Below are positions 14,824 through 46,334 of a DNA stretch of 64,000 bases, one piece after another. The translations under genes and the position numbers were made by a program. Within the stretch, counting starts at the first letter, position 1; each line of letters starts with the position of its first letter. Source of the stretch: Synechococcus sp. (GTDB taxonomy: Bacteria > Cyanobacteriota > Cyanobacteriia > PCC-6307 > Cyanobiaceae); the NCBI GenBank assembly GCA_047285805.1, contig JBJBCN010000002.1, forward strand, positions 1,120,001 through 1,184,000, in the 5' to 3' direction. The notes beneath the pieces are model-generated. The model made no database searches. It saw nothing but the letters and a program-made list of their open reading frames with translations, and was not told the DNA's origin.

Positions 14824-15822
14824 ATGCAGCAGTCCCTAAGCATCTCGCTGGTGGCACTCAGCTCTTTTGCTTTCTCCATCACAACACTGGCTACCGTCAG
14901 CGCCAAACCAGATGAGGTGGCTTCCGGCCCTTATGGTGACGTTGGGTAATGAGGATCAAGCTCACGGGAATCGGCAAACTGCAGATCGCATCCAAGGTCA
15001 AACACAAGCCGCTCGCACCCTCTACCAAGCAGGTCTGGGTGGCTTCCTTTCCATGGTAGTGGGCAGCAACAGCGTCTTCTTTGCTGATGTGCGGGCGAAT
15101 GCAAACTTCGCGGACCGAGGCAGCATCAGCATCAATACCAAGGTGGCTGGTACCACCATCAGCACGTCATCCAGGCTGTGTTGCGTCTGACTGAACGTTG
15201 ACCGCAGTTGGATATTTGGCGTCAACGGTGGGTATGACACCCGACCGATGGCAGCTGGTGATGCCGCCGATACGGGCGTTGCGGTCTCTGATCAGTGGAC
15301 AGTCTTTTTCCAGCAGGCAGGGTTTGCTTGGAAGCAGTGAATGATGACTGGAACTTCAATACCTACGGGCTCATCCCAACTGGAACAACTGAATACAGGC
15401 TAAATAGTCGCTACAACGAAGGAGCAGTGGATACTTACGGGTTTAATGCAGGCTACAGCCTCACGACAAAGTGGAAGCTCAGCGTTGGCTATTACTACCA
15501 AAACCGCGACCTCAATACAGCTGATGGCTCAGGCGTGCTTGGGCGACTGACTTACAGCATCAATGAGGGTGTAACGGTTGGTGTCAATCTGTCTTATGAC
15601 AGGGCGCTTAAGTCACGCTTCTCGGCTGATATTAAGTGGCGGTTTAATACAGCAGGAATTACGCAAAGTGAAAAGCACAAGCAGGTGTGGGAGTAGCCAA
15701 CGATTAAGGCACTAACTGAGAGCGTTAAGAATAGGGATGTGCCGGTGCACGATTGCGAGGGTAATGGGGCTTGCAGGCGTAACGGGTTAAGAGGGTGCGG
15801 AGGCACTGTTTGTGGTATTTGA
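14824..15822 (+). pseudogene. Inverse-autotransporter beta-barrel paralog 1 (frameshifts and stops)
   Basis: MQQSL.. start; homologous in pieces to 30511-31542; ends NRDVPVHD-CEGNGACRRNGLRGCGGTVCGI*. Confidence 0.88.
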
Positions 15823-15887
15823 ACTGACAGCTGCTTACTGTCTGTTTTTACTGTTCAGGTTAGTAACTGACTGTGGCTAGGCACCCT

Positions 15888-15915
15888 AAACCCCTACCAG
15901 CGCAGGGGCTTTTTA
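15888..15915 (+). terminator. Degenerate intrinsic terminator after paralog 1
   Basis: aaacccctaccagcgcaggggcttttt. Confidence 0.6.
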
Positions 15916-16460
15916 TTGCTTCAATTACGCCAACAAGCCAACAAATCAGCACCCAGTGTCTAAAGAGGTTGTACTCTTCAATGAGGGCAAGTTTGGGTTT
16001 TGATCAGCGATACCAGCTGCTGGTGACTGCGAACAAACCTCCTGCGCTGAGGACTGTCGTAGTCCCCTTCAATAACCTCCAGAGTCGACGTGCCACCCAG
16101 CAGCCAGTCGCTCATCGGCCTCATCAAGCCCCATGGTCATGCCGCTTTCCTCAGAAAACGCTTGTCCTGATCGAGCTGCATCACCCGGAGTGCTTCGTAG
16201 TCTTCCGTGCACTTCTGGCAGCTACAGGGGACGCCATGCAGATCCCAGCGGTCTAAAAGGAAACCAGTCAGCTCAACTTGGTCTTTGTGGAACTTGGGCA
16301 AAGCTAGAAGCCGAAGGCCGGCTGCCCACTCTCAAGGAAACCAATGACGAATGGTTGCCGATTTCGTGGATGTCAGTGGGATCACATCGTTTTCGGTAGC
16401 CGTTGCTCCGCAATAACTACTTTTCTTTGTGGGCCTTCATCAGCGAGTACAAGCGGTCCC

Positions 16461-16619
16461 TCAATCGCTTTTCGAATCATCTGGACTCAGCAGCAGCTCC
16501 TCCAAGAGCCGCTCCATTAGGTCTCCTCGAATGCGCAGACGCAGTTTTCGCTTGGGCTGATCCACAGCGGCCAAGACCTCGGTGCTCAGCTCTAGGTAGA
16601 TCCGTTCTCTCTCGGCCAA
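16461..16619 (-). CDS. Small ribbon-helix-helix-like protein
   Basis: Translated by hand: (M)AERERIYLELSTEVLAAVDQPKRKLRLRIRGDLMERLLEELLL..; strand-helix-helix pattern. Confidence 0.4.
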   Translation of the reverse strand: MAERERIYLELSTEVLAAVDQPKRKLRLRIRGDLMERLLEELLLSPDDSKSD

Positions 16620-16766
16620 GTGCCTGGTCAGTTCATCGTTGCCCCATCAGGAATCGTCTAGGAAGTCTCGTCTCCCTTCATCCTGCCGCCGCCCAGCCAA
16701 CTGCTCTAAGCCCAGTGGCAATGCAGGTTGTTTTGGCAAAGCTCCGAGCAGTTGAGCGTGTCTGTG

Positions 16767-17753
16767 ATGCAGCAGTCCATTCGCCTGAGCCTCTCTCTCA
16801 CGGGTGCTGCAGCGCTGGCACTGGCATCAATGGCGCAGGTCAGCGCCAAGCCCGTTCAAGTCGCACAAGGCACAGCCAGTGACCTGGGTGTGATGAGCAT
16901 CAACCTCAAGGACATCGTCCAACCGCAGGTCGGCATCCAAGGTCAAACCCAAGCCGCTGGCACTCCCAACCAAGCAGGTCTGGGTGGATTCCTTCCACTA
17001 GTGGTCGGCAGCAACAGCGTCTTCTATGGCGACGTTCTGGCGAATGCCAACTTCGCAGACATCAACAACTCCTCCAGCATCATCAACACCACCGTTGCTG
17101 GCACCACCATCTCCACCTCATCCCGCCTGGGCTATCGCTGGCTCAATGGCGACCGCAGTTGGATGGTTGGCCTGAATGCGGGCTATGACACCCGACCAAT
17201 GAGCACGGGTGATGCCGATACAGGCATTCCTGTCTATGCCTCACGCACGGCTTTCTTCCAGCAGGCTGCTGTCAATGCAGAAGCGGTAAGCGATAAGTGG
17301 GCATTCAATGCCTATGCGCTTATCCCAACGGGTGACACCAAGCAGGTCCTCAACACCGTCTATCAAGGCGGCGCACTGGACACCTACGGCTTGGATGCGG
17401 GTTACAGCCTGACGCCAGCCCTAAGAGCATCTGTTGGTTACTACTACCAAAACGGCGATGCAGGAGAAGCAGATGGCTCTGGTGTCTTGGGTCGCCTCGC
17501 TTATGCCATCAATAACGAACTAACTATTGGCACCAACCTCTCTTATGACAGTGCCTTCAAGTCACGCTTCTCCGCTGATATCAAGTGGCGCTTCCAGACC
17601 AATGGCGGTCCTGGCAAAGAAACACCGAAAAACAATGCTGCCATTGAAGCCCTAATATCAACGCCAAGTAATCGGGATGTGCGGGTGCATGACGACTCCA
17701 GAAAGACACGAGTCACAATGGTCGATGGCTCGGTCAAGTTTGTAAACGACTGA
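16767..17753 (+). CDS. Inverse-autotransporter (intimin/invasin-type) beta-barrel protein, paralog 2, intact
   Basis: Signal peptide; RLGYRWL..WMVGLNAGYD; FFQQAAVNAE..NAYALIP; linker PSNRDVRVHD plus 19-aa tail. Confidence 0.85.
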   Translation: MQQSIRLSLSLTGAAALALASMAQVSAKPVQVAQGTASDLGVMSINLKDIVQPQVGIQGQTQAAGTPNQAGLGGFLPLVVGSNSVFYGDVLANANFADINNSSSIINTTVAGTTISTSSRLGYRWLNGDRSWMVGLNAGYDTRPMSTGDADTGIPVYASRTAFFQQAAVNAEAVSDKWAFNAYALIPTGDTKQVLNTVYQGGALDTYGLDAGYSLTPALRASVGYYYQNGDAGEADGSGVLGRLAYAINNELTIGTNLSYDSAFKSRFSADIKWRFQTNGGPGKETPKNNAAIEALISTPSNRDVRVHDDSRKTRVTMVDGSVKFVND

Positions 17754-19143
17754 ATTATTTTACCAATCCCATTAGGTCCTTGGGTGGGGAGATTTCCCAG
17801 AGACTTAAGTGAGGGGAATCACTCCTTGATAGCCTGCAACAAATTGCGAAACATATAAGTCTTCAGTGCGAGATCGCGAAAACCAAGAAATCAACATCCA
17901 ATATCTGGCATCATTGCCATCAACCTAGCTTGACGACAGACCCATCAAGGCACTGAATAGAAGTCACCTCAGAATATGAATTCGACTGTGGGCAGTTTTC
18001 AATACGTTGAAGAAAACCGTCAACATATCGATATTCACTCACACCTTTTCCTATGCCGTCACGGTTAGCCGGCACGAAGAAGAACGTTTTTGATGGTTGG
18101 GAGTTCCATCAAACTCCATTGAATCCAGTCGCAGAAAGCGTTCTCAAGGAATTGGTAGACAGGGTTGTGAAATAGGTAGGCAAACACGTGCACTCAGTGC
18201 GGAATAAGGCCGCTCCGGCACCGAACAACACTTGAGCGCCCGGTGATATGGATTGGACCCACTGCTGGTATGCACACCTAAACCGGTGCCTCATCTCGTC
18301 CTGCAGTGGTCCTCAGATCCACAGAAAAAGTTCATTTGGTTACAAACGGCACATCACCGCCAAAGCGGCTGCTGGATCATTTGCTTGTGACCTCCGGGTC
18401 GGGCAAGGGAGATAGCTGAGGCGGGCTGGAACCGCCTTTTTCATGTCCGCCGGACCGCTGCTGGGTTGCATCAGCAGACGCTGCTGCCATTCCTGCTCCA
18501 GCTGGTCCAGGCGGGTGCTCACGGCTGGGTTCACTGAGGGGCGCCCAGTGATCGGCTAAACCTGGCAACAGATGTGACGTGAGTGGCTGCAAATGCCAGC
18601 AAACGGAAACCCGGCATGGGGGTATCTGGAGCCCTTCTGACTCAATGAAGTGGGCTCAGAAATTTGCGGTTGGAACTTGTCGCATGTGTGGGAAAAAACC
18701 ACAGCTGATCGAGGCTTCAGTCAAGAGGGGATGTATCGAGGACGGGTACTTCAAAGGACATCCAAACGCCAGTCAGTCCACGCCGAAATTCATTCACGTT
18801 GGGAGCGGCTATGCGGGTTTACGTCTGGCGAGTCCTGAGTTGGCTGTGAATGCTGAGGAGGCTTCGTACAACTTGCACCCTTGGCGCTTCTCTTGCGGTT
18901 GGTTGGTTTCCCGAGCAAGGTTGGACTTTTGTCCATGCTCGACGTGTTGTCAGCGGAGCTTTGTTCTGGGTTCATGAGCCGTCCCAGTGACGTACCAACG
19001 CTGGCAATAGCTCTAGTGGTGTCGCCAGCTCATGCCAGCAAACGGACACCGTGTATGGGTTAACTGGAATCCTTGTGAGTACGTGAAGTGGCTTCAGAAA
19101 TTTGAGGCAGGAATCGGCTTAAACAAGAAACCGCCCAGATGAA

Positions 19144-19253
19144 TGGCGTTTCACCAACCGGCAGCCAATCAGCTCAGGGGCAACGACCTCCGCTGGACGG
19201 CACAAGAAGGCGTGGGGCAGGGCGGGGAAAGCTTGGGTGATGGGCTGGGTGGC
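19144..19253 (-). pseudogene. mpg: N-terminal fragment of DNA-3-methyladenine glycosylase (Mpg/AAG)
   Basis: Reverse strand reads [28 protein letters not shown], then homology stops. Confidence 0.65.
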
Positions 19254-19368
19254 TATGGGAGTGGCTTCTTTATCTGTCTTCATCGTGCCGCCGCCAAGCC
19301 AACTGCTCTAAGCCCAGTGGCAATGCAGGTTGTTTTGGCAAAGCTCCCAGCAGTTGAGCGTGTCTGTG

Positions 19369-20333
19369 ATGCAGCAGTCCATTCGCCTGAGCCTCTCTCT
19401 CACGGGTGCTGCACCGCTGGCACTGGCATCATGGCGCAGGTCAGCGCCAAGCCCGTTCAAGTCGCACAAGGCACAGCCAGTGACCTGGGTGTGATGAGCA
19501 TTCAGCTCAAGGACATCGTCAAACCTCAGGTCGGCATCCAAGGTCAAACTCAAGCCGCTGGCACCCCTAACCAAGCAGGTCTGGGTGGCTTCCTTCCACT
19601 TGTGGTCGGCAGCAACAGCGTCTCCTTTGCTGATGTCCTGGCGAATGCCAACTTCGCTGACATCAATAACTCCAGCATCATCATCAACACCACCGTTGCT
19701 GGCACCACCATCTCCACCTCATCTCGCCTGGGCTAGCGCTGGCTCAATGGCGACCGCAGTTGGATGTATGGACTGAATGCGGGCTACGACACCCGACCAA
19801 TGAGCACGGATCCTGCAGACACAGGTATCCCTGTCTATGCCTCACGCACCGCCTTCTTCCAGCAGGCTGCCGTCAATGCAGAAGCGGTGAGCGATAAGTG
19901 GAACTTCAATGCCTATGCGCTCATTCCAACGGGTGACACTGAGCAACAGCTCAACACCGTCTATGAAGGCGGTGCACTAGACACCTTCGGTTTGGATGCC
20001 GGTTACAACCTCACCAAAGCTTTAAGAGCATCTGTTGGTTACTAATACCAAAACGGCGATGCAGGCGATGCCGATGGCTCTGGCGTCTTGGGACGCCTCG
20101 CCTATGCCATCAACAATGGACTCACTGTTGTCACTAATCTTTCCTACGACAGTGCCTTCAAGTCACGCCTCTCCGCTGACATCAAGTGGCGCTTCAATAC
20201 CAATGGCGGTCCTGGTAAAGAAACACCGAAAACCAATTCCGCCATTGAAGCCCTAATATCAACGCCAAGCAATAGGGATGTGCGGGTACACGATTGTTCC
20301 CTGGAGGTTCTTGCGCAATTGGGGCAGTGTTAG
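19369..20333 (+). pseudogene. Inverse-autotransporter paralog 3 (1-bp deletion near 19430, TAG 19734, TAA 20043)
   Basis: Close to paralogs 2 and 4; ends NRDVRVHD-CSLEVLAQLGQC*. Confidence 0.9.
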
Positions 20334-20380
20334 GGGGGGGGAATCTCCTAATCAGTGGAGAATTGGGAGCCTAATCACCC

Positions 20381-20408
20381 AAAGCCCCTGCAACCGCAGG
20401 GGCTTTTT
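20381..20408 (+). terminator. Intrinsic terminator after paralog 3
   Basis: aaagcccctgcaaccgcaggggcttttt. Confidence 0.85.
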
Positions 20409-20890
20409 ATTTCTTCAGTCACACCAATAAGGCAATAAACCAGCCTCCAATGCCTGGCACCATCGCCATCAACGCAACCTGACGGCAGACCCAACGAGGC
20501 ACTGAATAGAAGTCAACTCAGGAAAACACATCAGCTGTAGGCAATCTTCTATAAGTTAAAGTTAAACCGTCAACAGGTCGACATTCACTAAGGCCTTTTT
20601 TCTATACCGTCACGCTTGTTCGGGACAGAGGGGGACTTTTTCTATGCATGGGAGTTCTAAGGAAACTCCATTTAATCGAGTCGTGCCACGCGCTCTCAAG
20701 GAATCAGTAGACAGGTTTGCCACAAGAGGTAGACAACCAAGTCCACTCAGCGAGGCAGAAGGCAACGTGCAGCGAGCTGCAGCGGCAACAACTAGCAAAG
20801 GAAGGTTGTATGTCGATTGCAGATTCGTTGGAAGCAGCGCGGAAGACGGCCAGTGCCATCAAATTGAAAGGCACGACTACCAGCGGCAGG

Positions 20891-21047
20891 TCTGCTCAAG
20901 GTCGGCTGAATGCCCGTAGAGGCACTTTGAGGAGCCGATCAGGAGGTGTAGCTGTCTGCTCAGCATTCAGGCGTAGAAGCCCCTAGGGGGGGGGGGGAGC
21001 TGGGTCCATGCGCCTACGTAATACGGCTTCAGAAAATTGGGCCAGGA
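20891..21047 (+). pseudogene. Duplicated 3' fragment of the DUF1651 gene plus its downstream sequence
   Basis: Matches 26041-26198, with two TGG>TGA changes. Confidence 0.75.
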
Positions 21048-21087
21048 AACCATCTGAAGCCGAGGCCCTTCCAATTCACATCAATGG

Positions 21088-21258
21088 TCAAGAGTCAGCG
21101 AACACGTCATAGATCGGTCGAATAGAGCGACTAACCTTTTCTGAGCGCTCTTGAGCTATTTCAAGCCTCCGCTTAGTCGTTGCAAGCTCAACTTCTATCG
21201 CCAATTGTTCAAGCTGAGCACTTAGAAGCTTTTGGGTTCGCGCTGAAACATTTGCCAT
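21088..21258 (-). CDS. Small helical/coiled-coil protein (56 aa)
   Basis: Translated by hand: MANVSARTQKLLSAQLEQLAIEVELATTKRRLEIAQERSEKVSRSIRPIYDVFADS. Confidence 0.45.
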   Translation of the reverse strand: MANVSARTQKLLSAQLEQLAIEVELATTKRRLEIAQERSEKVSRSIRPIYDVFADS

Positions 21259-21419
21259 GGTTATCGGTTAATTTGCTGAAAGCTATAAATTGAATTCGGC
21301 AATCGCGTAAAGACTTTACGTATCTACACCTATGCATGTAGTTAAGTGAAGCATTTGCTTGGCTGGGCCTCATTGGCGGGGTGTTCGGTTTGCCGCTTCT
21401 GGCTGCAGGCAGCCCCTTG

Positions 21420-21845
21420 CACGCTTGCAGCGAACTAAGCCATAACCACTGAGGACACGGTTCCCCGCAGACCCTTTGATCCGAGAAGGGGGAGCGGCTA
21501 CCTCCCCGACCTCAACACTCCCCGTCACTAAGCAGTAGCTCGGGGAGCTGTTTGGCGAGCAAGCAAAAAGCCGGTCACCAATCGGCTCCTTTCTCTCCCC
21601 GTGCACTGCACGGCACTCCTTGGTTTTGGCTCATCTGGATACAAAGCGCCAGTAGCGTGTCTGCAGTCGCAGTAGAGCTTCTTTACGAGCCCTCGCACTA
21701 CCCACATGGGTTTTGCCATAACCGATCTGAGGAAAGCTGATTGGCGAGTCCCAGCGATCCGACGGGGAGCCAACTCCCTCCCCGATTTCTCCCTGAGCCC
21801 GCCCAATACCCCTCCGACGCCTTCGTTTTGAAGTCGGAGGTTTTT
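21420..21845 (+). ncRNA. Candidate structured non-coding RNA with two copies of an internal motif (possibly Cyano-2-related)
   Basis: Dense hairpins, three GCGA-containing loops, duplicated GCCATAACC..CTGAGGA..GATCCGA..GGGGAGC..CTCCCCGA, 3' terminator, no convincing ORF. Confidence 0.6.
21810..21845 (+). terminator. Intrinsic terminator closing the candidate RNA
   Basis: cctccgac...gtcggagg stem followed by ttttt. Confidence 0.75.
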
Positions 21846-22205
21846 GCCTTATGGCTAGGCTTGACGGGTCGGCGTCAGCAAGTGCAAGTGGCACCTAGGC
21901 AGCTTTAACTGAAGGAGGCCTCAGTCGCCTGAGCTGCAGACGGTTTCCACCAGTCCAACACTGGTCTCGAAGCTCTTAGACCAGCACGTCGCTTATGCAG
22001 TCGCTGTAAGCGCAAACCTCTGTGGCTAGTCATCACATGGAGGTTTTTTCTTGGCTGGTCGCTGAAGGGTTGCTTACGGCTAGATGCTGGAGAGCCTCAG
22101 GCCCAGTCCTTAGTCCCACACACAACGCTCAATGGGTGACCAAAGACACGTCACCGCTGAAGGCCTGGCCGCACTATTTCACCAAGACCTTCGAATGGGT
22201 TTCAA

Positions 22206-22249
22206 GGGACAAAAAAGCGGCGGTGTGAAACCCGCCGCTTTTTTGTCCC
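22206..22249. terminator. 18-bp perfect inverted repeat, probable bidirectional terminator
   Basis: gggacaaaaaagcggcgg-tgtgaaac-ccgccgcttttttgtccc. Confidence 0.7.
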
Positions 22250-23089
22250 GATGGCCACTGCCGGGTTGCATCAGCAAACGCTGCTGCCATTCCGTCTCCA
22301 GCTGGTCACAGTGGGCGAGGACGGCTGGGTTAAAGAGGTGGTCGCGGAGGCTGAGTGTGAAATTCCTATGGAAAATCGTTGTTGGTGCACTCTGGGTGGG
22401 TATTTGTCCATTACTGAGGCCCCATAACGCATGAAGCGACTTACTTAAGCCATAGGCATTAGGGAAATGGTCGTCACTTGACTGGATAGATGGGGTTGGG
22501 GTGTCTTTCCGCTCACCCCACCTCAACGTTCCCCACCGCGAGCGGTGGTCTAGGAAGGTTGTGGCACTAACGATCTTCTTATTCCCATAGCGCAAGCCAA
22601 TGGGTGGTGCAGTGATCACACATAGACAATTCTTGTGCTTGTCAAGCCTGTATTTGGGATAGGCCTCCACAAGAGAGCTGAGTCTTCATTGATTCGACGA
22701 GTCCTAAGGCTCATCTCTATTCACGAAGCATGCATATAGAACTAATTCCATGCCCAAGACACTCTTTCATTGGAGAGGATGTTACAAGATCGACAAATCC
22801 ATTACATCAACAATACAGAAGACAAGGAGTGGCCCGCAACCCCAAGCTGTGAACTCGTAGATTGAGCCATCCGGCAAGTTCTTATTTATGCATAGGAGAG
22901 TCTTAGGCGGATTCTTTAGCACCCAACCGAAACCGCATTTTTGTATCCGAAAGCACCAAAGCCATGAAAACAACAATTAATAAGCGGCTCGGACAAGGGT
23001 TTGCTGACACAACCAACGAACGGTACCGTTTGATACTCGTTGTGTATTAGCTAATTCGCGAGAATTTTGATATGTATTCAGCTGTGTAG

Positions 23090-23506
23090 ATGCTTGCTCG
23101 CAGACCTATCGAGATCGTTCATCAGACTCCTCTACAGTCAGGTGTAGGGTTCTTTGGCGATCCACTTCCCAGTGACGAAACGCTAATTGCGGAGATTCCA
23201 CCTTGTGTGAGTCCTCAATTGTTTTGTCATCGCAATCAAACTGATCAACTGATGGTCCTGCGCGGAAGCATCGATCTAATAGTTCTGCAGAACCGGGCTT
23301 TGAAGCGGATAGCCCTTAGGGAAGATGAGGCCTTCTGGGTACGTATTCCAGCAGGTGTCCCACATGGCGCTATCAACCGAAGCCATGGCTCAGCCGTGCT
23401 GGTCAATGCAGTGTTGCGCCATGGTCCAAGCGATCTTCGTGATTATCGCCCTCGGCCTGTTCCCAACGCCCTACTGCCAGAATGGAATGATCTAATCAAC
23501 AACTAA
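23090..23506 (+). CDS. RmlC-like cupin (dTDP-4-dehydrorhamnose 3,5-epimerase-like)
   Basis: FCHRNQTDQLMVLRG and IPAGVPHGAIN cupin motifs. Confidence 0.75.
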   Translation: MLARRPIEIVHQTPLQSGVGFFGDPLPSDETLIAEIPPCVSPQLFCHRNQTDQLMVLRGSIDLIVLQNRALKRIALREDEAFWVRIPAGVPHGAINRSHGSAVLVNAVLRHGPSDLRDYRPRPVPNALLPEWNDLINN

Positions 23507-24130
23507 GTCATTATGAGAGCTCTATGCAGTTTCCAGAAAAAAGCTTTCACCAAAGTCATTGATAAAAAGATCAGATAATTGGATATGCATCTTTTGGTGC
23601 CATGATTAATTCAGATTGTGCGTATCTGGCAGCCCTAGATCCTCTAGGCGATAGTCCCGCAACCACGGCGGGAATTGAAAACAGCAGAGATTAACCACAT
23701 ATTTGATTCCGCGCAATCAATCAACAAGATCCGACCTTAAGTCTGGTTGACAATCTTCTTAATCTGGCTTCTGAACCCTGAAGCCAGTAAGAGCTGTACG
23801 AGTCTGCAAGGTGACTTGTTGGCATCGGGTCTGTTTCCCTTCAACCATTGCTTTAGTACGAAGAAGCATTTGACTTGTGGTCGCGCCCTGGGCTTCCATT
23901 GCAGCTGCGACAAGAAGCCAGTTTATTATTCGGTAGTTGATGAAGCTGTAGTTCGGTGGACTGAACCAACAACCAATGCGACCCCAGTGGACCTATCGCG
24001 CTGGAGGTTTCCGAACCATAAAGTCTCGCGAAAGGCTGAGGCAAGTGCTTTCCAGGCAATAGTTGCAATCGACACGTCAAAGGAAGAGCACCACTTGTCA
24101 TAATTGTCTCCAGCACGTGGTCCTGGGCCG

Positions 24131-24319: not shown

Positions 24320-24936
24320 CACTAATTGACCACGAACGATCAGGTATTCGTCATCCATCAAGTTTTGAAGGCTTGAGCGACTCCGATACCCCAGCTGTCT
24401 TAATTCCGCTGCAATGCTTTTAATGGCCACTACTAACCCGATATCAGCGCCTAAACCAGCCAAAGGAATTTTGAGCTGACGCTAGACAAACCGAGCGCCT
24501 CTGGAGACCCACAGACGCTATTAAACGAAGGACCCTCAAGGCGCAAAACCATCTTGAAGCAACTAGAAGTGTGGGGGGGATCAATGATCTTTGCTCCACA
24601 GTTGCGAAGCCGCAAATCGCCAGGCGATGAAAGTACTTAGGGACGCGCCAAAGGCAAGAAGAGCTAACAAGAGCTGAGAGGTGGTCATAGAAGCACCCTG
24701 AATTGAATTTATTTATAAAGCCTTCATGGTGACTGGCGCCGTTGATACAAGATCAGGCGTATCAATCAATACGTCTTTTGGTGAGCCTAAATTACTTAAC
24801 TCACTTACCAATGAATGGTAGATCTGCGATTTTCATCAGAGTCCAGTTGACCTGCGGGACCACGACAAAAGAGGTGACTCAAGGTCAGAGTGTCCACCAC
24901 TCAAGACCTCGTTGTAAACTGATTCGATCCAGCCAC

Positions 24937-25173
24937 TCAAGAATCTGCTGCCTTTTGTCTCCAATGGGTTCCATGATTTCGCAAGGCTTCAGCTTCCATC
25001 TCCCTTCGAATCTGCACTACTGCTTCGCGCACGAAGGCTTTTTCGTGCTCCTGTGCGGCAATGATTTGCTTGGTTAGTGCACGTAAGGCATCAATATCTT
25101 CGCAGGCATCGATTTCTCGAAAGGCGGCCTCAAGGTGGAATTTTTGCTCCAGTGAGAGTCGGTGGTTAGCCAT
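24937..25173 (-). CDS. NblA-like small helical protein
   Basis: LSLEQKF motif near the N-terminus, 78 aa, two-helix pattern. Confidence 0.55.
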   Translation of the reverse strand: MANHRLSLEQKFHLEAAFREIDACEDIDALRALTKQIIAAQEHEKAFVREAVVQIRREMEAEALRNHGTHWRQKAADS

Positions 25174-25227
25174 GGTGGTACGAAAAGAGGCCCCACTCAT
25201 GTGAGGCCAGATAAGTCAGTTGAGTGC

Positions 25228-25395
25228 TTAGCGGACTTCCGAGATTGTTTGAGGTGCAGCCGGGAAGCTTGTTGGCATTGGGTCCGGCAGTCCTTCGGCA
25301 AGAGCCTTCGCGCGGACATACATCTGACTATTAATGGCACCCTGAGCTTCCATTGCCTCGGCGACAACAGCCCAGTTGCGGATCTCGGTAGTCAT
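25228..25395 (-). CDS. Small hypothetical protein
   Basis: MTTEIRNWAVVAEAMEAQGAINSQMYVRAKALAEG..DP; co-oriented with the NblA-like gene. Confidence 0.6.
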   Translation of the reverse strand: MTTEIRNWAVVAEAMEAQGAINSQMYVRAKALAEGLPDPMPTSFPAAPQTISEVR

Positions 25396-25852
25396 TGGAA
25401 GAAATGACGATTGAACCTGCAAACTTTCGCCACCTCAGCCGCGAGACGGTGAGGATGAAAACCGATCACCTACCGAACATCGATTCCACTTCTTTCGCTG
25501 GTAGGCATTTGCGGATCAAGTCAAACAAAAAGGCGACTGCAAGGCCACCTGATGCACTAAAAACCCAGTCCCAGTCAAGAAAGTCATGCGATCGCGTCCT
25601 GCATCGCAGCGAAGCTTTCAGGGTGTCTGACGGCGATATGGATCGACTGCAGCGCTCGGATGCCAGTCGTGGACTCAATTCGTCCATGTGATCGCCAGCC
25701 CCAGTTGTGACAAGCGTTCTTGTTGAAGCTTGGGTAAGGCGCTGTTTAGTCCCGCTATCAGGGTTTTGAACCCCCTATGAATAAGAAACTCTGAGGCTCC
25801 CGCCACAACCGGCTCAACCGGCTAGCCTGGTACAGGCGTACTAAGGCATGGG

Positions 25853-26101
25853 ATGTCAATAGGGGGGTTCATCCAGGATCCAGCTAGCAAGCAGGCCAAG
25901 CGCTTCCACCGCGATGAGAAGAGTTGGTCACAAGACCCCATGGTCTTTGTGGACACAGGCGTTCCGATTCCGGGCGAGCCTCCGCTCCTGAAGACTCGAG
26001 TGCACTTACATCGCAACGTTGCGGTGACCCTCTGGAACGATCTACTCAAGGTCGGCTGGAAGCCCGTAGAGGCGCTTTGGGGAGCCGATCAGGAGGTGTA
26101 G
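25853..26101 (+). CDS. DUF1651-family protein
   Basis: KRFHRD..VFVDTG...PPLLKTR..W..L.K.GW pattern. Confidence 0.75.
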   Translation: MSIGGFIQDPASKQAKRFHRDEKSWSQDPMVFVDTGVPIPGEPPLLKTRVHLHRNVAVTLWNDLLKVGWKPVEALWGADQEV

Positions 26102-26221
26102 CCGTCTGCTCAGCATTCAGGCGTAAACACCCCCCCCATGGGGGGCTCGTACGTCCATGCGCCTACATAATTCGGCTTCAGAAATTTGGGCCAGGAACCT
26201 CGATAAAGCCAAGCAAGACCA

Positions 26222-26257
26222 GTGCAGCGGCCTGGTAGTGCGGGTGCTTTGGGAGCA
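26222..26257 (+). repeat. Degenerate 5' half of tRNA-Pro(TGG), att-like scar
   Basis: gtgcagcggcctggtagtgcgggtgctttgggagca resembles the D arm and anticodon arm of tRNA-Pro; no T arm. Confidence 0.5.
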
Positions 26258-26418
26258 ACCGCAACTACAAGCGAGAAGCTAGTCATTCACTAGATCCAGC
26301 AAGTCTTAACCGGCTGTATTAGCGACAAACTAGCGACAACGCTCCTGCACTCACTCGATTTATCCGTGCGGACGAGCTGCAATCACGGCAACATCACTGC
26401 AACCACGTACCAGCGCTG

Positions 26419-27369
26419 ATGCTGCGGACCTTGTCGATTGGGTTAATGGCATCTGCATTCGCAGTCGCCACTCTCCCTGCACAAGCTGATGGGCATGGCA
26501 GCGCCAGTGACCTAGGCGTGATGAGCATTCAGCTCAAGGACATCGTCAAACCTCAAGTCGGCATCCATGCGCAAACCCAAGCCGCTGGCACCCCCAACCA
26601 AGCCGGTCTGGGTGGCTTCCTTCCACTGGTGGTCGGCAGCAACAGCATCTTCTTTGCTGATGTCTTGGCGAATGCCAACTTGTCGGACTGGGGTAACAGC
26701 AGCAGCATCATCAACACCACCGTTGCTGGCACCACCATCTCCACCTCATCTCGCCTGGGCTAGCGCTGGCTCAATGGCGACCGCAGTTGGATGTATGGAC
26801 TGAATGCGGGCTACGACACCCGACCAATGAGCACGGGTCCTGCAGACACAGGTATCCCTGTCTATGCCTCACGCACCGCCTTCTTCCAGCAGGCTGCCGT
26901 CAATGCAGAAGCGGTGAGCGATAAGTGGAACTTCAATGCCTATGCGCTCATTCCAACGGGTGACACTGAGCAACAGCTCAACACCGTCTATGAAGGCGGT
27001 GCACTAGACACCTTCGGTTTGGATGCCGGTTACAACCTCACCAAAGCTTTAAGAGCATCTGTTGGTTACTAATACCAAAACGGCGATGCAGGCGATGCCG
27101 ATGGCTCTGGCGTCTTGGGACGCCTCGCCTATGCCATCAACAATGGACTCACTGTTGTCACTAATCTTTCCTACGACAGTGCCTTCAAGTCACGCCTCTC
27201 CGCTGACATCAAGTGGCGCTTCAATACCAATGGCGGTCCTGGTAAAGAAACACCGAAAACCAATCCCGCCATTGAAGCCCTAATATCAACGCCAAGCAAT
27301 AGGGATGTGCGGGTGCACGATTATTGTTATCTACCCCGTCGGGGTGCGTGCCGATTGGGGATGGATTAG
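26419..27369 (+). pseudogene. Inverse-autotransporter paralog 4 (TAG 26761, TAA 27070), with a different signal peptide
   Basis: Body nearly identical to paralog 3; ends NRDVRVHD-YCYLPRRGACRLGMD*. Confidence 0.9.
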
Positions 27370-27421
27370 TATTTTTGTGCGATACATATTGTGTTTAGGG
27401 GTATTATTACCCTAGGCGCCC

Positions 27422-27612
27422 AAAGCCCCTGCAGTTGCAGGAGCTTTTTATTTCTTCAGTTACACCAATAAGCCAATAAACCAGCCTCCAAAACCTGGCA
27501 CCATCACCATCAACGCAACCTGACGACAGCCCCATCAAGGCACTGAATAGAAGTTGCCTCAGGATAAAAAGTCAGCTGTGGGTAGTCGTTACACGTTGAA
27601 GAGGAACTCCAT
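27422..27612 (+). repeat. Conserved module right end: terminator, about 140-bp spacer and exact ychF 3'-end att core (27589-27612)
   Basis: Close copy of 33112-33302; ttacacgttgaagaggaactccat is identical in both. Confidence 0.92.
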
Positions 27613-27768
27613 AGGTTCTAGTCATAGCAATAGATCTGAGCGGAAAAGCAGCAGTAGACTTTTAGTAGACTTATTTGGCACCCGAGTCGGCTTGCCTACT
27701 GTCTAGCAATACATAAGCACTACGCGGTTGACGTTCTGGATGAGGTCGAAGGTGAGCAATACAGTTGG

Positions 27769-28079
27769 ATGCGACGTTTCCTACCGCTGCGATTGGCGTG
27801 ATTGTAACGCCGCTGAGTGCAGCAGAACACCACGAGACGAAGCCGGCACAGGTCGTTGATGAAAGTGATACGAACCTTCCCGTGAGTCGTGGAAGGGTTG
27901 ACACCGGTTCTACAGAGCAGATTTACCTGATGCTCAAGGACGGTGGTTCCTTCTCAGCACCCATTCCAATGACGAACCGGTTCACTTGTGAACTAGAGGG
28001 TAAGAAGTTGGTTGAGACGCCCATCAAGGGCGTAGTCGGTCGCTGGAAGGAGTTCTGGTGTGTCGCTGGGATGAAGTGA
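27769..28079 (+). pseudogene. Second copy of the small secreted protein, apparently with a 1-bp deletion in the signal peptide
   Basis: Mature part highly similar to 11119-11433; ATG at 27769 is out of frame with the body (ctgctt versus cgatt). Confidence 0.65.
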
Positions 28080-28247
28080 AGCGACTGACCTGGGGCGAAC
28101 GTACTAAAAAAACAAAACAGCCTTCTCGGGCTACTTAATGGATTCGAGAGAAGAAATACTTCACCATCACTTTGATTAAGCAATATCGTTTAAGAACTGG
28201 AACACAGATATGGATTTCAGCATAAGGAGAAGAAGAAGACCTGGCAG

Positions 28248-29951
28248 TCACCCTTCAATGAGTGACCGGAATTCAGTATCCACAAGCTTTTGATGCACAC
28301 ATTGCGCAATTCGGCTCGTGAGAGGGTAGCCAGGATGAGAATCTACATGGACACCATTCCACATCCATCTTGGAGCTGCTTTGTCAATACCTGTAACCTC
28401 CTGTATATCAGGCAAGCATGAATGACTTGGTATTCCAGCGTGACGGAATAAGCCGTCAGCATATTCAAATACTTTGCTTTGACTCTGTAGACCATTCCAA
28501 GGAGTGAAAAACACATAAATGGGAGCTTGAGCTTCTTCAACCAAGGCTTTCACAGCTTGAACATTCAACGCATGCCGATTTGGATCCAGACTCATATCAT
28601 TATCGACAAATCCGAGGAGAATCAAATCGACGGAGTGCTTTGAGCCTTTTACCTGAAGAAAGTCAACCTGATCTCTAGTACTCCAACCGCCCTGCCCCCA
28701 ATAAAAGACTAAACAGCCAGGAACCAACTTCTGAAACTGAGCCGGCCAGCGCTCATCGCTTCCTGGGGAATTACCCCAACCCCATACAAACGAGTCACCT
28801 AGAACAGCAATTTTACACTTAGCTTGAAGATCGTAATCAGCTACTGGTCGGTCGATAAAGCCATATTCATTAACACTGCCAAGGCGTTTCCACAAGTTCA
28901 CTCGATTAATAAATTCACTCTTTATCGGCAAGTACGAAGGACTTCTTGATGCAGACTCATCAAGCAAACTGGTTGTTGAAAGCAGCAGGTCAAGAACAAC
29001 TAACGAAAAAGCTGTCATACAAGAGAAGACAAGTAGATTCACCCCCAATAGCTTGCTTGCCTTATCAAGGTTAATGGCAGTCCTGGCCTTACCTAAACCA
29101 CAGAGAAGCGGCAAGATCTCCGAAAAAAGAATCCATAACAGGAGGCAAAGAATTGCCCCTCTTAAATAAAGAGGGATATCAAAAGTCGAAAGATACACGA
29201 GAACGCCATCCGACTCTTCTACATAGAAATAAATAGGAGAAAGCCAGGGAATATACTCAGCAACAATCGTCTGAAGCTTGCCTACAAACAGAGCATCCAA
29301 ATGCCGACGAGACAAGAAGACTGAGGGGGCTTTTATCCATGGAACAAATAGGCCTCTGTGATACAAAGAAGTATCTTGCAAGAAACCACCCTTGCACCCG
29401 GCATCCAAAATACTATCAGGATGCAAAACAACAAATCCCAGAGGGGAGCGATCAGTCCATCCGGAGTAAAATGAGAGCGGTTTTTTTTTGGAATATTCAA
29501 CTGCCAAATCATCGGCCCTAGTTAAGCCATGGTCAAATAAGTCACCCAAGAAGCTTCTCTTGGGAATCAAGTAATTCCCTTTAGTTTCCAAGGGGACACC
29601 CTGAAAAGACTGGAGCTTCTGCTCGAGCCAATAAAAAGCTGGAGAGTGCCAAAGCACTTCTGAGCGTGGCTTACGAAAAGCCTGAGTTACATCAAGATTT
29701 CCAGAAGCAAGTGGTCCAGAATGAAAGTAAGTGTCTAGGTTTTTCTTTGGCTTATAACCTTCGTAGGGCGGCACAGAATAAAATCTTGTGGGCCTGACTT
29801 CAAATCGGAAGTAATCACTACTATCGATGCATTCCGAATTCCCCGATCCCATCAAGAACTTTGACGGCAGGCCTGGAGCAAATACAGCTGCTCCGAGTAG
29901 CGGCAAAAAAAGCCATTTAGCACCAAGCGGACATAAAGATCGAAGCTTCAC
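28248..29951 (-). CDS. Membrane-anchored SGNH/GDSL hydrolase-family protein
   Basis: AVLGDSF (block I), GQGGWST (II), GFVDND (III), DSHP (V); two internal TM segments. Confidence 0.8.
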   Translation of the reverse strand: MKLRSLCPLGAKWLFLPLLGAAVFAPGLPSKFLMGSGNSECIDSSDYFRFEVRPTRFYSVPPYEGYKPKKNLDTYFHSGPLASGNLDVTQAFRKPRSEVLWHSPAFYWLEQKLQSFQGVPLETKGNYLIPKRSFLGDLFDHGLTRADDLAVEYSKKKPLSFYSGWTDRSPLGFVVLHPDSILDAGCKGGFLQDTSLYHRGLFVPWIKAPSVFLSRRHLDALFVGKLQTIVAEYIPWLSPIYFYVEESDGVLVYLSTFDIPLYLRGAILCLLLWILFSEILPLLCGLGKARTAINLDKASKLLGVNLLVFSCMTAFSLVVLDLLLSTTSLLDESASRSPSYLPIKSEFINRVNLWKRLGSVNEYGFIDRPVADYDLQAKCKIAVLGDSFVWGWGNSPGSDERWPAQFQKLVPGCLVFYWGQGGWSTRDQVDFLQVKGSKHSVDLILLGFVDNDMSLDPNRHALNVQAVKALVEEAQAPIYVFFTPWNGLQSQSKVFEYADGLFRHAGIPSHSCLPDIQEVTGIDKAAPRWMWNGVHVDSHPGYPLTSRIAQCVHQKLVDTEFRSLIEG

Positions 29952-30169
29952 GGCCTAAGCGCTCTTCTGCGTAGTGTATTATACACACAAGGAGAGTTGA
30001 AGGTGAAGTATCCTCTGGCATGCGACCATAAAAACTTCCTGTAAGTATCTATATTTACTTATACAGAAAGAAGCCTATATGAATGCATCCAGCTCGCGAA
30101 AGCCCCACCAGTCATAGCGAAAACAATGTCTTCGACTAGAACAGAAAACCCCATGGCATGACTGGATGC

Positions 30170-30193
30170 TTATACGTTGAAGAGAAACTCCAT
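30170..30193. repeat. att-like copy of the ychF 3' end
   Basis: ttatacgttgaagagaaactccat, two mismatches to 33279-33302; still encodes MEFLFNV*. Confidence 0.88.
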
Positions 30194-30510
30194 AGGGTCG
30201 AGTAATAGCAAAGGATCTCAGCCGAAAAGCGGCAGTAGACTTTTCAAGCCGTCAAGCCAGTAGACAAAGCATCTTGTCTACCCTGATTCAGCTCACACTC
30301 ACCACTGTCTAGACTTCCGCAGGGCTGCACTAATCCAGAGCACAGGGGACGCCGACAATCTTCCAGTTCATTGGAATCGGTGACGCAGCAGGAATCGTCT
30401 AGGGAGTCTCGTCTGCCTTCATCGTGCCGACGACCAGCCAACTGCTCTAAGCCCAGTGGCAATGGCGGATTTCCTGGCGAAACTCCCAACAGAAGTTGAG
30501 CGCGAGCGCT

Positions 30511-31542
30511 ATGCAGCAGTCCATTCGCCTGAGCCTCTCCCTCACTGGTGCAGCTGCTTTGGCACTGGCATCAATGCCGCAGGTGAGCGCAAAGCCTGCA
30601 GTGGTGGCGCAAGGGAGCGCGGAAGACCTTGGAGTGATGAGCATCCGCCTCAAGGATGTGGTGAAACCGCAGGTTGGTGTTCAAGGTCAAACCCAAGCGG
30701 CTGGCACCCCGAATGAGGCAGGCATTGGCGGTTTTATGCCGCTGGTGGTGGGAGAGAACAGCGTCTTCTTTGCTGATGTGCTGGCGAATGCGAACTTCGC
30801 GGACTGGGGCAACAGCAGCAGCATCATCAATACCAAGGTGGCGGGTCCCACCATCAGCACGTCATCCAGGCTTGGGTATCGCTGGCTGAATGGTGACCGC
30901 AGTTGGATGTTTGGTGTCAACGGTGGGTATGACACCCGACCGATGGCAACGGGTGATGCCGATACAGGTGTTGCGGTCTCTGGCCAGCGGACAGTCTTTT
31001 TCCAGCAGGCAGCGTTTGGCTTGGAGGCAGTGAATGATGACTGGAGCTTCAATGCCTATGGATTAATACCAACTGGAACAACGGAATACAGGTTGAATAG
31101 TGCTTACAACGGGGGAGCACTGGATACGTATGGGTTTGATGCGGGCTACAGCATCACGCCAGAGTGGAAGCTGAGTGTTGGCTATTACTACCAGAATGGC
31201 GACCTCAATACAGCTGATGGCTCAGGCGTGCTGGGGCGACTGGCTTACAGCATCAATGAGGGAGTAACGGTTGGCACCAATCTGTCTTATGACAGCGCGT
31301 TTAAGTCACGCTTCTCAGCTGACATTAAGTGGCGGTTCAATACGGCAGGAATTTCGCAAAGCGAGAAGCAGAAGAAAGCGTGGGAGAAGCCAACGATTAA
31401 GGCATTAACTGAGAGCGTGAAGAATAGGGATGTACGGGTGCACGATACGACCTGGTGTAATACCCCAGGCGGGGAACCGGGAATATTAGTAACTACCCCT
31501 GGAGACGGGAAGTCTGTGTGTGTCACGCCCGCCCCAATGTAG
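30511..31542 (+). CDS. Inverse-autotransporter beta-barrel protein, paralog 5, intact
   Basis: Same motifs as paralog 2; ends VKNRDVRVHD-TTWCNTPGGEPGILVTTPGDGKSVCVTPAPM*. Confidence 0.87.
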   Translation: MQQSIRLSLSLTGAAALALASMPQVSAKPAVVAQGSAEDLGVMSIRLKDVVKPQVGVQGQTQAAGTPNEAGIGGFMPLVVGENSVFFADVLANANFADWGNSSSIINTKVAGPTISTSSRLGYRWLNGDRSWMFGVNGGYDTRPMATGDADTGVAVSGQRTVFFQQAAFGLEAVNDDWSFNAYGLIPTGTTEYRLNSAYNGGALDTYGFDAGYSITPEWKLSVGYYYQNGDLNTADGSGVLGRLAYSINEGVTVGTNLSYDSAFKSRFSADIKWRFNTAGISQSEKQKKAWEKPTIKALTESVKNRDVRVHDTTWCNTPGGEPGILVTTPGDGKSVCVTPAPM

Positions 31543-31566
31543 GGTGAGCCTAACCACCCAACGCCC

Positions 31567-31597
31567 AAAGCCCCTGTAACCGCAGGGGCTTTTTATT
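31567..31597 (+). terminator. Intrinsic terminator after paralog 5
   Basis: aaagcccctgtaaccgcaggggcttttt. Confidence 0.85.
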
Positions 31598-31859
31598 TCT
31601 TCAGTCACACCAACAAGCCAACAAATCAGCCTCCAATGCCTGGCACCATTGCCCTCGACTTAGCCCAATGGCAGGTCGCTCACGGCATTCTTTGCCTCAT
31701 CGCAAGACCGCAAGACACACCAAAGCCTCCCTCAATATCTTTCTCTCTACTTCTATCCTTATTTCCTCAACGCATTCACCAATCACTTCGCTCTCTATAG
31801 CCATCACGGATGCCATTGGCGCGTCTAAATCTCACCGCCACTTGATACCAAGCCGCCTG

Positions 31860-31936
31860 GGGGCAACGACCTCCGCTGGACGGCAGAAGAAGGCGTGGGG
31901 CAGGGCTGGGAAATCTCTGGTGATGGGCTGGGTGGC
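31860..31936 (-). pseudogene. mpg: Second N-terminal Mpg fragment
   Basis: Reverse strand reads [18 protein letters not shown]; homologous to 19144-19253. Confidence 0.6.
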
Positions 31937-32053
31937 TATGGGAGTGGCTTCTGGTCTCCCTTCATCGTGCCGACGACCAGCCAACTGCTCTAAGCCCAGT
32001 GGCAATGGCGGATTTCCTGGCGAAACTCCCAACAGAAGTTGAGCGCGAGCGCT

Positions 32054-33082
32054 ATGCAGCAGTCCATTCGCCTGAGCCTCTCCCTCACTGGTGCAGCTGC
32101 TTTGGCACTGGCATCAATGCCGCAGGTGAGCGCAAAGCCTGCAGTGGTGGCGCAAGGGAGCGCGGAAGACCTTGGAGTGATGAGCATCCGCCTCAAGGAT
32201 GTGGTGAAACCGCAGGTTGGTGTTCAAGGTCAAACCCAAGCGGCTGGCACCCCGAATGAGGCAGGCATTGGCGGTTTTATGCCGCTGGTGGTGGGAGAGA
32301 ACAGCGTCTTCTTTGCTGATGTGCTGGCGAATGCGAACTTCGCGGACTGGGGCAACAGCAGCAGCATCATCAATACCAAGGTGGCGGGTCCCACCATCAG
32401 CACGTCATCCAGGCTTGGGTATCGCTGGCTGAATGGTGACCGCAGTTGGATGTTTGGTGTCAACGGTGGGTATGACACCCGACCGATGGCAACGGGTGAT
32501 GCCGATACAGGTGTTGCGGTCTCTGGTCAGCGGACAGTCTTTTTCCAGCAGGCAGCGTTTGGCTTGGAGGCAGTGAATGATGACTGGAGCTTCAATGCCT
32601 ATGGATTAATACCAACTGGAACAACGGAATACAGGTTGAATAGTGCTTACAACGGGGGAGCACTGGATACGTATGGGTTTGATGCGGGCTACAGCATCAC
32701 GCCAGAGTGGAAGCTGAGTGTTGGCTATTACTACCAGAATGGCGACCTCAATACAGCTGATGGCTCAGGCGTGCTGGGGCGACTGGCTTACAGCATCAAT
32801 GAGGGAGTAACGGTTGGCACCAATCTGTCTTATGACAGCGCGTTTAAGTCACGCTTCTCAGCTGACATTAAGTGGCGGTTCAATACGGCAGGAATTTCGC
32901 AAAGCGAGAAGCAGAAGAAAGCGTGGGAGAAGCCAACGATTAAGGCATTAACTGAGAGCGTGAAGAATAGGGATGTACGGGTGCACGATACGACCTGGTG
33001 TAATACCCCAGGCGGGGAACCGGGAATATTAGTAACTACCCCTGGAGACGGGAAGTCTGTGTGTGTCACGATTACGCCCTAA
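32054..33082 (+). CDS. Inverse-autotransporter beta-barrel protein, paralog 6, intact
   Basis: Protein identical to paralog 5 except the final residues (..VCVTITP*). Confidence 0.87.
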   Translation: MQQSIRLSLSLTGAAALALASMPQVSAKPAVVAQGSAEDLGVMSIRLKDVVKPQVGVQGQTQAAGTPNEAGIGGFMPLVVGENSVFFADVLANANFADWGNSSSIINTKVAGPTISTSSRLGYRWLNGDRSWMFGVNGGYDTRPMATGDADTGVAVSGQRTVFFQQAAFGLEAVNDDWSFNAYGLIPTGTTEYRLNSAYNGGALDTYGFDAGYSITPEWKLSVGYYYQNGDLNTADGSGVLGRLAYSINEGVTVGTNLSYDSAFKSRFSADIKWRFNTAGISQSEKQKKAWEKPTIKALTESVKNRDVRVHDTTWCNTPGGEPGILVTTPGDGKSVCVTITP

Positions 33083-33111
33083 TGTAGGGTGAGCCTAACC
33101 ACCCAACGCCC

Positions 33112-33139
33112 AAAGCCCCTGTAACCGCAGGGGCTTTTT
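33112..33139 (+). terminator. Intrinsic terminator after paralog 6 (may also terminate ychF)
   Basis: aaagcccctgtaaccgcaggggcttttt. Confidence 0.85.

Positions 33140-46262: not shown

Positions 46263-46334
<72 letters not shown>

Follow-up and report, generated by a model that had tools for sequence, protein, structure and literature searches.

The window analysed here is a stretch of 64,000 nucleotides (nt) from Synechococcus sp. (assembly GCA_047285805.1, contig JBJBCN010000002.1, positions 1,120,001 to 1,184,000), which belongs to a 2.37-Mb genome on three contigs. It contains a genomic island with six copies of one gene family, in which a constant barrel is followed by a short C-terminal tail that differs from copy to copy. 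We consider it probable that each intact gene encodes a minimal type Ve inverse autotransporter carrying a disulfide-closed loop, and that these loops are diversified by recombination between conserved flanks. The observations comprise the gene anatomy, the predicted fold, the diversity of the tails and the parity of their Cys residues, the sharp boundaries of the variable part and the spread of the family in multiple copies. Picocyanobacterial barrels of the intimin/invasin kind and 'barrel-only' inverse autotransporters are known; what appears to be new, as judged from the literature searched, are the hypervariable tails, nearly always with an even number of Cys.

The island is recognized by its G+C content, which falls from 61–67% to 42–57% across approximately 11 kb to 33.2 kb of the window. 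It borders core genes, which were read by eye as a GTPase-like open reading frame (ORF; 33279–34370) and an efflux-adaptor-like ORF (34486–35685). The six copies (c1 to c6) all lie on the plus strand, and the ORF listing and translation bore out their places and their linker NRDV(R/P)VHD as described in an earlier note on this DNA; the motif ends at 15753, 17693, 20294, 27321, 31446 and 32989, respectively. The tails quoted in that note and their Cys counts of 4, 0, 2, 2, 2 and 2 were exact.

Only c2, c5 and c6 are intact, and c1, c3 and c4 are pseudogenes. In detail, c2 (16728–17753) encodes 341 amino acids (aa) with the linker motif at 17670–17693 and a tail of 19 aa without Cys (17694–17750). 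Copy c5 (30496–31542; 348 aa), the protein used for the structure model, has its linker motif at 31423–31446 and a tail of 31 aa with two Cys (31447–31539), and c6 (32039–33082; 347 aa) is a tandem near-duplicate of c5 whose tail of 30 aa (32990–33079) departs from that of c5 only in the last residues. Among the broken copies, c1 (14990–15822) is without residues 1–61 and contains a frameshift as well as an in-frame TGA and TAG, but retains the linker NRDVPVHD (15730–15753) and the tail CEGNGACRRNGLRGCGGTVCGI with four Cys (15754–15819). Copy c3 (19354–20333) has in-frame stops at 19734–19736 and 20043–20045 and the tail CSLEVLAQLGQC (20295–20330), and c4 (26419–27369) has stops at 26761–26763 and 27070–27072 and the tail YCYLPRRGACRLGMD (27322–27366). 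Both in-frame stops are common to c3 and c4 and stand where the intact copies have Tyr. The N-termini of c2, c5 and c6, read by eye, show a basic residue, a hydrophobic Ala/Leu run and VSA|K and thus represent candidate signal peptides. That all six copies share one signal peptide, as had been stated, is not the case: c4 has its own, c1 has none and that of c3 is out of frame, with a 1-nt offset in this region (repeat spacing 2602 versus 2601).

The variable part is sharply delimited on the DNA level. In all six copies the DNA is conserved up to ...GTGCACGAT and diverges from the very next base, as seen in the DNA alignment, and in five of the six similarity returns at a hairpin, AAAGCCCCTG-loop-CAGGGGCTTT, which is followed by T-rich sequence. 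This hairpin accounts for the three strongest terminator-like sites of positions 14500–33500, and weaker versions stand after c1 and c4. The one closing the c3 slot lies at 20381–20406 on the plus strand, and the equivalent sites are 15891–15908 (c1), 27428–27441 (c4), 31567–31592 (c5) and 33112–33137 (c6). Resumption of similarity at a shared terminator, as proposed in the earlier note, therefore applies to five copies and not to c2, which is without the hairpin and where similarity returns approximately 130 nt past the stop codon. Together with about 100–170 nt the hairpin forms a conserved downstream block, found on the plus strand at 33102–33302 and, within the window, also at 15877–15961, 17880–18013, 20376–20571, 27412–27612 and 31557–31646; in this genome it occurs only beside the 11 barrel copies. 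The slot between both conserved blocks measures 64–128 nt in the eight of 11 genome copies in which the search pattern located the downstream block; the earlier note gave roughly 70–135 bp. Neither silent donor cassettes nor orphan cassettes were found in this genome, where each slot is single except for the trio of c5, c6 and the copy at C2:154k. A fixed DNA recombination site at the boundary was considered and rejected: the motif exists in 48 distinct DNA versions among 92 occurrences, and variability at its four-fold positions is only slightly below that in other motifs, so that no clear site emerges.

A comparison with homologs supports, on the sequence level, the suggestion that the linker is followed by a hypervariable and very short peptide in which Cys come in pairs. 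Tails were taken from homolog proteins and from 69 genomic loci; some of these proteins are truncated by the end of a contig, which would weaken the rule but not produce it. The 269 homolog tails form 235 groups, with no BLASTP match between groups at E ≤ 1e-3. In detail, 35 groups contain no Cys, 6 contain one, 135 two, 1 three, 43 four, 12 six, 2 eight and 1 twelve, which amounts to 193 groups with an even non-zero number versus 7 with an odd number. Among the first 177 unrelated tails, 142 had an even non-zero and 7 an odd number of Cys, while shuffling of residues among them gave a mean of 57.7 even and 81 odd, and never fewer than 57 odd in 2000 shuffles. Cys makes up 411 of 7328 tail residues (5.6%) versus 39 of 47953 residues elsewhere in the proteins (0.08%), an approximately 70-fold difference. 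The tails are between 2 and 144 residues long (median about 27–29; 27 for two-Cys tails), and a typical two-Cys tail consists, by medians, of 5 residues, Cys, a 10-residue loop, Cys and 5 residues. The tails of Prochlorococcus MIT 0707 have a common frame of Cys, variable loop, His-Cys and x-Pro, mostly with a later Gly-Trp, and their variation falls within the loop. The tabulation suggested in the earlier note thus upholds the proposed hypervariable paired-Cys peptide: no single longer passenger has been truncated to give these tails, and there is a strong enrichment of even Cys numbers.

Barrel and tail similarity are to a large extent uncoupled. In 242 pairs the last 250 barrel residues are at least 95% identical, and their tails are less than 35% identical in 194 and at least 50% identical in 45 of these pairs; among the pairs listed, seven have barrels that are 100% identical. 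Where barrel identity is below 95%, a tail is held in common in only 9 of approximately 29,400 pairs. The DNA of c3 and c4 is 98–100% identical over the 600 nt up to the boundary, approximately 50% identical over the 100 nt past it and then again 92% and 88% identical. Likewise, c5 and the copy on contig C3 are 98–100% identical upstream, apart from the 50 nt next to the boundary (69%), and 100% identical downstream, with unrelated slots in between. In addition, one tail occurs at 92% nt identity on barrels that are only 66% identical, in two different genomes. Taken together, the barrel/tail pairs and the identical flanks around unrelated slots require recombination in the conserved arms, be it by replacement of slots or by homogenisation of barrels around old slots. 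In the few codon-by-codon comparisons that related tails allowed, the tails show 1 synonymous and 16 non-synonymous changes versus 72 and 28 in the barrels, with single-pair Fisher p values of 0.008, 0.0004 and 0.23 for tail versus barrel changes; the barrels of L086/L031 were excluded from these counts because of insertions and deletions (nt identity 0.31), and tail identity and global protein identity were used for this pair instead. The codon pattern fits positive selection and also plain relaxation.

The latter would be expected if the tail were neutral, an alternative which we regard as unlikely. According to it the barrel would be the functional unit, e.g. as a structural or plugged outer membrane protein, and the tail a small disulfide knot that acts as a stopper against back-slipping of the linker. 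Its sequence would then be free, and its diversity would result from relaxed constraint together with a gene conversion that homogenises the barrels and is unable to cross the non-homologous slots. Indeed, the barrel is highly conserved, Cys pairing is the sole feature common to the 235 tail groups as a whole, and the tail changes given above deviate from the neutral expectation only at the borderline. The paralogs of one genome also often cluster in the tree, as concerted evolution would give, and the nine Prochlorococcus MIT 0707 copies form one clade. However, mere stoppers would hardly account for the many different tails that are kept side by side (9 distinct tails on the 11 copies of this genome), for the conserved frame around the variable loop in MIT 0707 or for the same tail on barrels that are only 66% identical, nor are the 35 Cys-free groups predicted by this explanation.

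The assignment of the barrel to the intimin/invasin (type Ve) kind is supported by an AlphaFold model of c5, which was built on an alignment of 69 sequences. The model has a mean predicted local distance difference test score (pLDDT) of 86.4 and a predicted template modelling score (pTM) of 0.79; it shows 12 long strands, helices at 290–296 and 299–305, an extended stretch to residue 319 and a hairpin of lower confidence in the tail (pLDDT 71–80), while residues 1–41 are disordered. The three best Foldseek matches were invasin 4e1t and the intimins 4e1s and 5g26 with E values of 1e-10 to 5e-10, and the next match followed four orders of magnitude behind (E 3e-6). An independent all-against-representatives structure search (VIA) again placed intimin 5g26 first (Z 23.1, root-mean-square deviation 2.6 Å, 220 of 241 residues), in an alignment of model residues 56–318 with residues 209–449 of the chain that includes the linker up to VHD. 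The runner-up KdgM (Z 17.3) was aligned with residues 60–282 only; COG4313 scored Z 17.0 and NanC Z 15.6 (over the barrel only). Residues 283–318 are unmatched in the KdgM and NanC alignments and most other barrels end near 281–291; only the intimin/invasin match extends through the linker to the VHD motif. We infer from the model that the protein from barrel to VHD is arranged in the same way as the beta-domain of intimin and the linker in its pore.

By sequence, Pfam IAT_beta is recognized in four of the 69 family members (E ≤ 0.01, best 9.4e-6) and in 43% of the proteins of one Atlas cluster, and one homolog is named 'inverse autotransporter beta domain-containing protein' by NCBI. The structure prediction suggested in the earlier note thus produced the 12-stranded barrel with intimin and invasin as best matches. 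The motif-based membership in the intimin/invasin family, which had been called established, is not supported in that form: no window copy passes the Pfam IAT_beta cut-off, so membership in type Ve rests on the predicted fold. NCBIfam gave nothing meaningful on the window proteins, and Pfam found no LysM domain in them. Moreover, Pfam detected no domain in the window proteins or in 21 long-tailed homologs, save one odd fusion. A match of the c2 tail to an H-X9-DG C-terminal domain was below the threshold (E 0.03, 14.2 bits versus a cut-off of 19) and was taken as chance.

The fit of other 12-stranded channels to the barrel (KdgM Z 17.3, COG4313 Z 17.0) leads to a further alternative, namely that the protein is such a channel or a ZirT-like translocase, the C-terminal segment of which stays in or folds back from the periplasm, with the Cys pair as a feature of a plug. 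A topology of this kind has been proposed for inverse autotransporters with short extensions in the sections at hand of Heinz et al. 2016 (PMC4943183). We nevertheless find it improbable in the present case, given that residues 284–318 are covered by the intimin match only, that a terminator directly follows the genes and that neighbour clustering over 69 loci revealed no recurrent co-encoded substrate gene. In addition, the hypervariability would be hard to explain for a periplasmic segment.

The family described here resembles intimin (EaeA of enterohaemorrhagic Escherichia coli) and the invasin of Yersinia, at a sequence identity of 12–14%, in its candidate signal peptide, its predicted 12-stranded barrel, a linker of helix plus extended stretch and a C-terminal part after the linker. 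The passenger, however, comprises 2–144 residues (median 27–29) instead of the Ig-like (Big) and lectin domains, hundreds of residues in all, of intimin and invasin. Unlike these, the family is also multi-copy with unrelated tails, and no periplasmic LysM domain was detected by Pfam; such passenger domains and LysM are usual in type Ve proteins but not found in all of them. Engineered intimin display in E. coli uses the intimin barrel to present at the cell surface a short peptide that is constrained by a disulfide and attached behind the barrel; that arrangement is man-made, whereas the one found here is natural, multi-copy and polymorphic. The prochlorosin precursors, with their constant leader and variable core, offer a parallel that we regard as an analogy only.

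Two earlier studies come closest. Heinz et al. (2016, PMC4943183), in the parts of the text at hand, describe 'invasin_beta-only' proteins with very short C-terminal extensions as well as distant invasin_beta groups in Cyanobacteria, and propose a topology like that of a two-partner translocase for ZirT-type members. These 'invasin_beta-only' proteins consist, like the family here, of barrel and linker with almost no passenger, and are regarded there as possibly ancestral or as translocases; nothing in these parts of the main text concerns hypervariability of the tails, the pairing of Cys, boundaries of cassettes or arrays of paralogs. Simm et al. (2015, PMC4365693), again as far as the main text is at hand, name five Prochlorales and nine Synechococcus strains that have intimin/invasin-domain barrels and suggest a role in the association with other organisms; this is a catalogue entry, with nothing in the main text at hand on C-terminal tails. 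In the literature searched on inverse autotransporters, intimin/invasin barrels and picocyanobacterial islands, we found no account of polymorphic even-Cys tails.

Polymorphic toxins (CdiA-CT, Rhs-CT) and antigenic-variation cassettes are built from a constant N-terminal delivery part, a demarcation motif and an unrelated C-terminal cassette that is exchanged by recombination. The family shares with polymorphic toxins the constant part, the demarcation motif and the unrelated cassette, but the tails are too short for enzymes and the slot of 64–128 nt is closed by a terminator and holds no immunity gene; one weak Ntox22 match (E 0.0084) was the sole match to a Pfam toxin family among the 69 members. 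This likeness raises the question of whether the barrel is both carrier and channel for export, with the tail released by cleavage past VHD to act as a bacteriocin, a signal or a modified ribosomal peptide. Besides the sharp conserved motif ahead of a variable C-terminus, as in polymorphic toxins, neighbouring genes that might take part in processing would be in line with such a release: genes for PqqD, an HprK-related kinase and a sulfotransferase adjoin the barrel gene in this genome and in 10 of the 69 loci, 8 of which include the kinase. We consider it very unlikely all the same, since the slot is too small for an immunity gene, no protease or cyclase is found among the ORFs scanned beside the module, and 59 of the 69 loci are without the module altogether; furthermore, cleavage is not known from type Ve systems. 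Finally, that the tails have no function and represent random read-through past a decaying gene family might be suggested by the in-frame stops and by the mutually unrelated tails, but is contradicted by the Cys parity test (193 to 7, with the first 177 groups far outside the shuffles) and by the roughly 70-fold abundance of Cys in the tails, and is scarcely credible.

In the minimal autotransporter that we favour, a Sec signal peptide would carry the protein to the periplasm, where approximately 230 residues would fold into the 12-stranded outer-membrane barrel. Past the last strand, two short helices and an extended stretch up to NRDVRVHD would be positioned like the pore linker of intimin, and the short C-terminal part would traverse the pore in the manner of type Ve secretion, coming to lie at the outer mouth of the barrel. 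The 'passenger' would then have a median length of 27 residues (about 5 residues, Cys, a loop of about 10 residues, Cys and about 5 more) and be displayed as a disulfide-closed loop on a constant scaffold. On the DNA level, the 64–128 nt loop slot is flanked by two conserved arms, the 3' end of the barrel and the terminator block, and homologous recombination in these arms may swap or maintain unrelated slots among paralogs as well as across strains and species. The most likely function would be that of a strain-specific set of variable surface epitopes in encounters with phages, grazers and other cells.

Several points weigh against this interpretation. We infer that the tail is exported and holds a disulfide, that its diversity stems from recombination, and also what it does, and the placement of the linker in the pore follows from the range aligned to intimin, not from measured geometry. 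The Pfam model PF11924 (IAT_beta) reached only E 0.2 and 11.6 bits on c2, versus a cut-off of 22.3, and did not match c5 or c6, and a profile of the 69 members compared by sequence with solved structures gave no match at E ≤ 10. A disulfide cannot be obligatory, as 35 of the 235 tail groups, c2 among them, are Cys-free. The identical flanks around unrelated slots can also be explained by gene conversion that homogenises the barrels. The tail of c6 is identical to that of L083 in another genome of the genus (G098, same island edge), and the surrounding DNA is approximately 93% identical; an identical tail between flanks about 7% apart means that tail turnover is not uniformly fast, and with 1 of 308 barrel codons different the pair suggests that the entire allele was exchanged recently. 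For a target of phages or grazers, it is also odd that the loops of the barrel itself are conserved. In-frame stops occur in 4 of the 11 copies in this genome and in 22 of 125 among the matches listed in relatives, indicating that many copies are decaying. As to expression, contigs of four aquatic RNA libraries cover the barrels of relatives (about 16824–17741) and end at the VHD boundary, with one running on from 17693 into a different tail, and 16 sequencing runs are among the matches listed with a query share of 0.05–0.10 each; the RNA-library contigs carry neither strand nor level and are no proof of transcription.

The minimal autotransporter can be extended to a more speculative proposal, which we put forward as a tentative possibility. 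According to this, the family would form a natural peptide-display repertoire with up to approximately 20 constant barrels per cell, each with a different disulfide-closed loop, and cassettes would move among paralogs, from species to species and even across phyla; as surface identities specific to each strain, and under frequency-dependent selection, the loops would determine the outcome of meeting phages, grazers or kin. In a still bolder variant, some tails might be modified or released with the help of the PqqD, kinase and sulfotransferase neighbours. Picocyanobacteria are among the most abundant phototrophs on Earth, and grazing and infection among them are believed to depend on their genomic islands, the genes of which are for the most part without an assigned role. 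A large and mostly mislabelled family now gains a clear architecture of constant barrel, sharp boundary and paired-Cys variable loop, which would also mend a widespread annotation error ('carbamoyl-phosphate synthase L chain'). Should the loops be exposed on the surface, the family would be a candidate for what determines interactions at the level of strains in marine and lake waters; if the proposal is true, it would provide the smallest natural type Ve passenger as well as a ready-made natural scaffold for the display of constrained peptides.

The 11 copies of the family in the genome studied here carry 9 distinct tails, and 7 of the copies are open. Of 301 sampled genomes of the same taxonomic family, searched at E ≤ 1e-20, 50 gave matches, which amounts to 42 of the 209 high-quality genomes and 14 of 64 genera; one genome of 2.9 Mb contained 21 matches, many in tandem arrays. 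In a wider search at least 2289 clusters at 90% identity scored (8000 candidates examined), and 590 clusters at 50% identity scored at E ≤ 1e-3. Among the matches listed that reach the C-terminal part, most alignments end at query residues 315–324, the position of VHD. Most database entries go by 'carbamoyl-phosphate synthase L chain' or 'hypothetical', and the named loci belong to marine and freshwater Synechococcus, including WH7803 (one locus, with a two-Cys tail), Cyanobium, Vulcanococcus, Prochlorococcus MIT 0707 (9 loci) and some Gammaproteobacteria. No match was found in 50,697 phage records or in IMG/VR contigs, and no relatives of 610–2000 aa were found at E ≤ 1e-10, the latter being weak evidence.

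In a quick FastTree analysis, the copies from a Halioglobus chromosome and two gammaproteobacterial bins were placed on long branches of their own. The gammaproteobacterial members (L056, L061 from the chromosome of Halioglobus sp. Uisw_031, and the bins L067 and L080) have two- or four-Cys tails, are 52–61% identical to c5 and stand on long branches among the cyanobacterial sequences. As far as can be judged from sequence, this suggests a transfer of the family between phyla. Two short 'gammaproteobacterial' contigs nest within marine Synechococcus and may be mis-binned. In one of the Prochlorococcus MIT 0707 loci (L060), an extra coiled-coil-like segment of approximately 40 residues lies between signal peptide and barrel. 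A metagenome cluster representative of 1010 aa (P0170) has a Baseplate_J-like domain (413–572) fused to the last two thirds of the barrel and ends in a 20-aa two-Cys tail; given the lack of phage and IMG/VR matches, it may be a chimeric contig or gene call.

The module mentioned above consists of four genes, which encode a lasso-type PqqD chaperone, an unknown protein of approximately 180 aa, a sulfotransferase and the HprK-related kinase. In this genome (G000) it adjoins a barrel gene on contig C2 (156407–159182; 5884–8743 of locus L113). PqqD and the sulfotransferase are present in 10 of the 69 related loci (L016, L018, L019, L022, L032, L064, L066, L067, L075 and L080, two of which are gammaproteobacterial bins), and the ~180-aa protein and the kinase in 8. 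A gene for an IS200-like Y1 transposase occurs in 14 of the 69 loci, e.g. at 5249–6085 on the minus strand of L042, in most cases close downstream of the terminator block of the barrel gene, and a remnant of such a gene is found on contig C2 of this genome (156181–156312).

As to the remainder of the island, no Rfam family was found at positions 9000–36000, and the sole tRNA of the window lies at 46263, so the island is not marked by a tRNA. A fragment of a methylpurine-DNA glycosylase gene (32 residues, 19125–19220, minus strand) is situated just upstream of c3; the whole glycosylase gene lies upstream of the contig C3 copy, which indicates that c3 arose by segmental duplication of such a locus. 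Between the barrel copies there are short repeats that are 78–90% identical (18432–18531/22232–22331, 20891–20983/26041–26133 and 20991–21064/26140–26213), and the first of these pairs overlaps minus-strand ORFs with similar peptide stretches. Other island genes at 12121–14010 (plus strand), 23090–23506 (plus strand) and 28248–29951 (minus strand) resemble genes for cell-envelope modification, namely an FkbM-type methyltransferase, a WxcM/cupin-like protein and a GDSL-like acylhydrolase with predicted membrane segments, and such a content of envelope enzymes is typical of picocyanobacterial surface islands.

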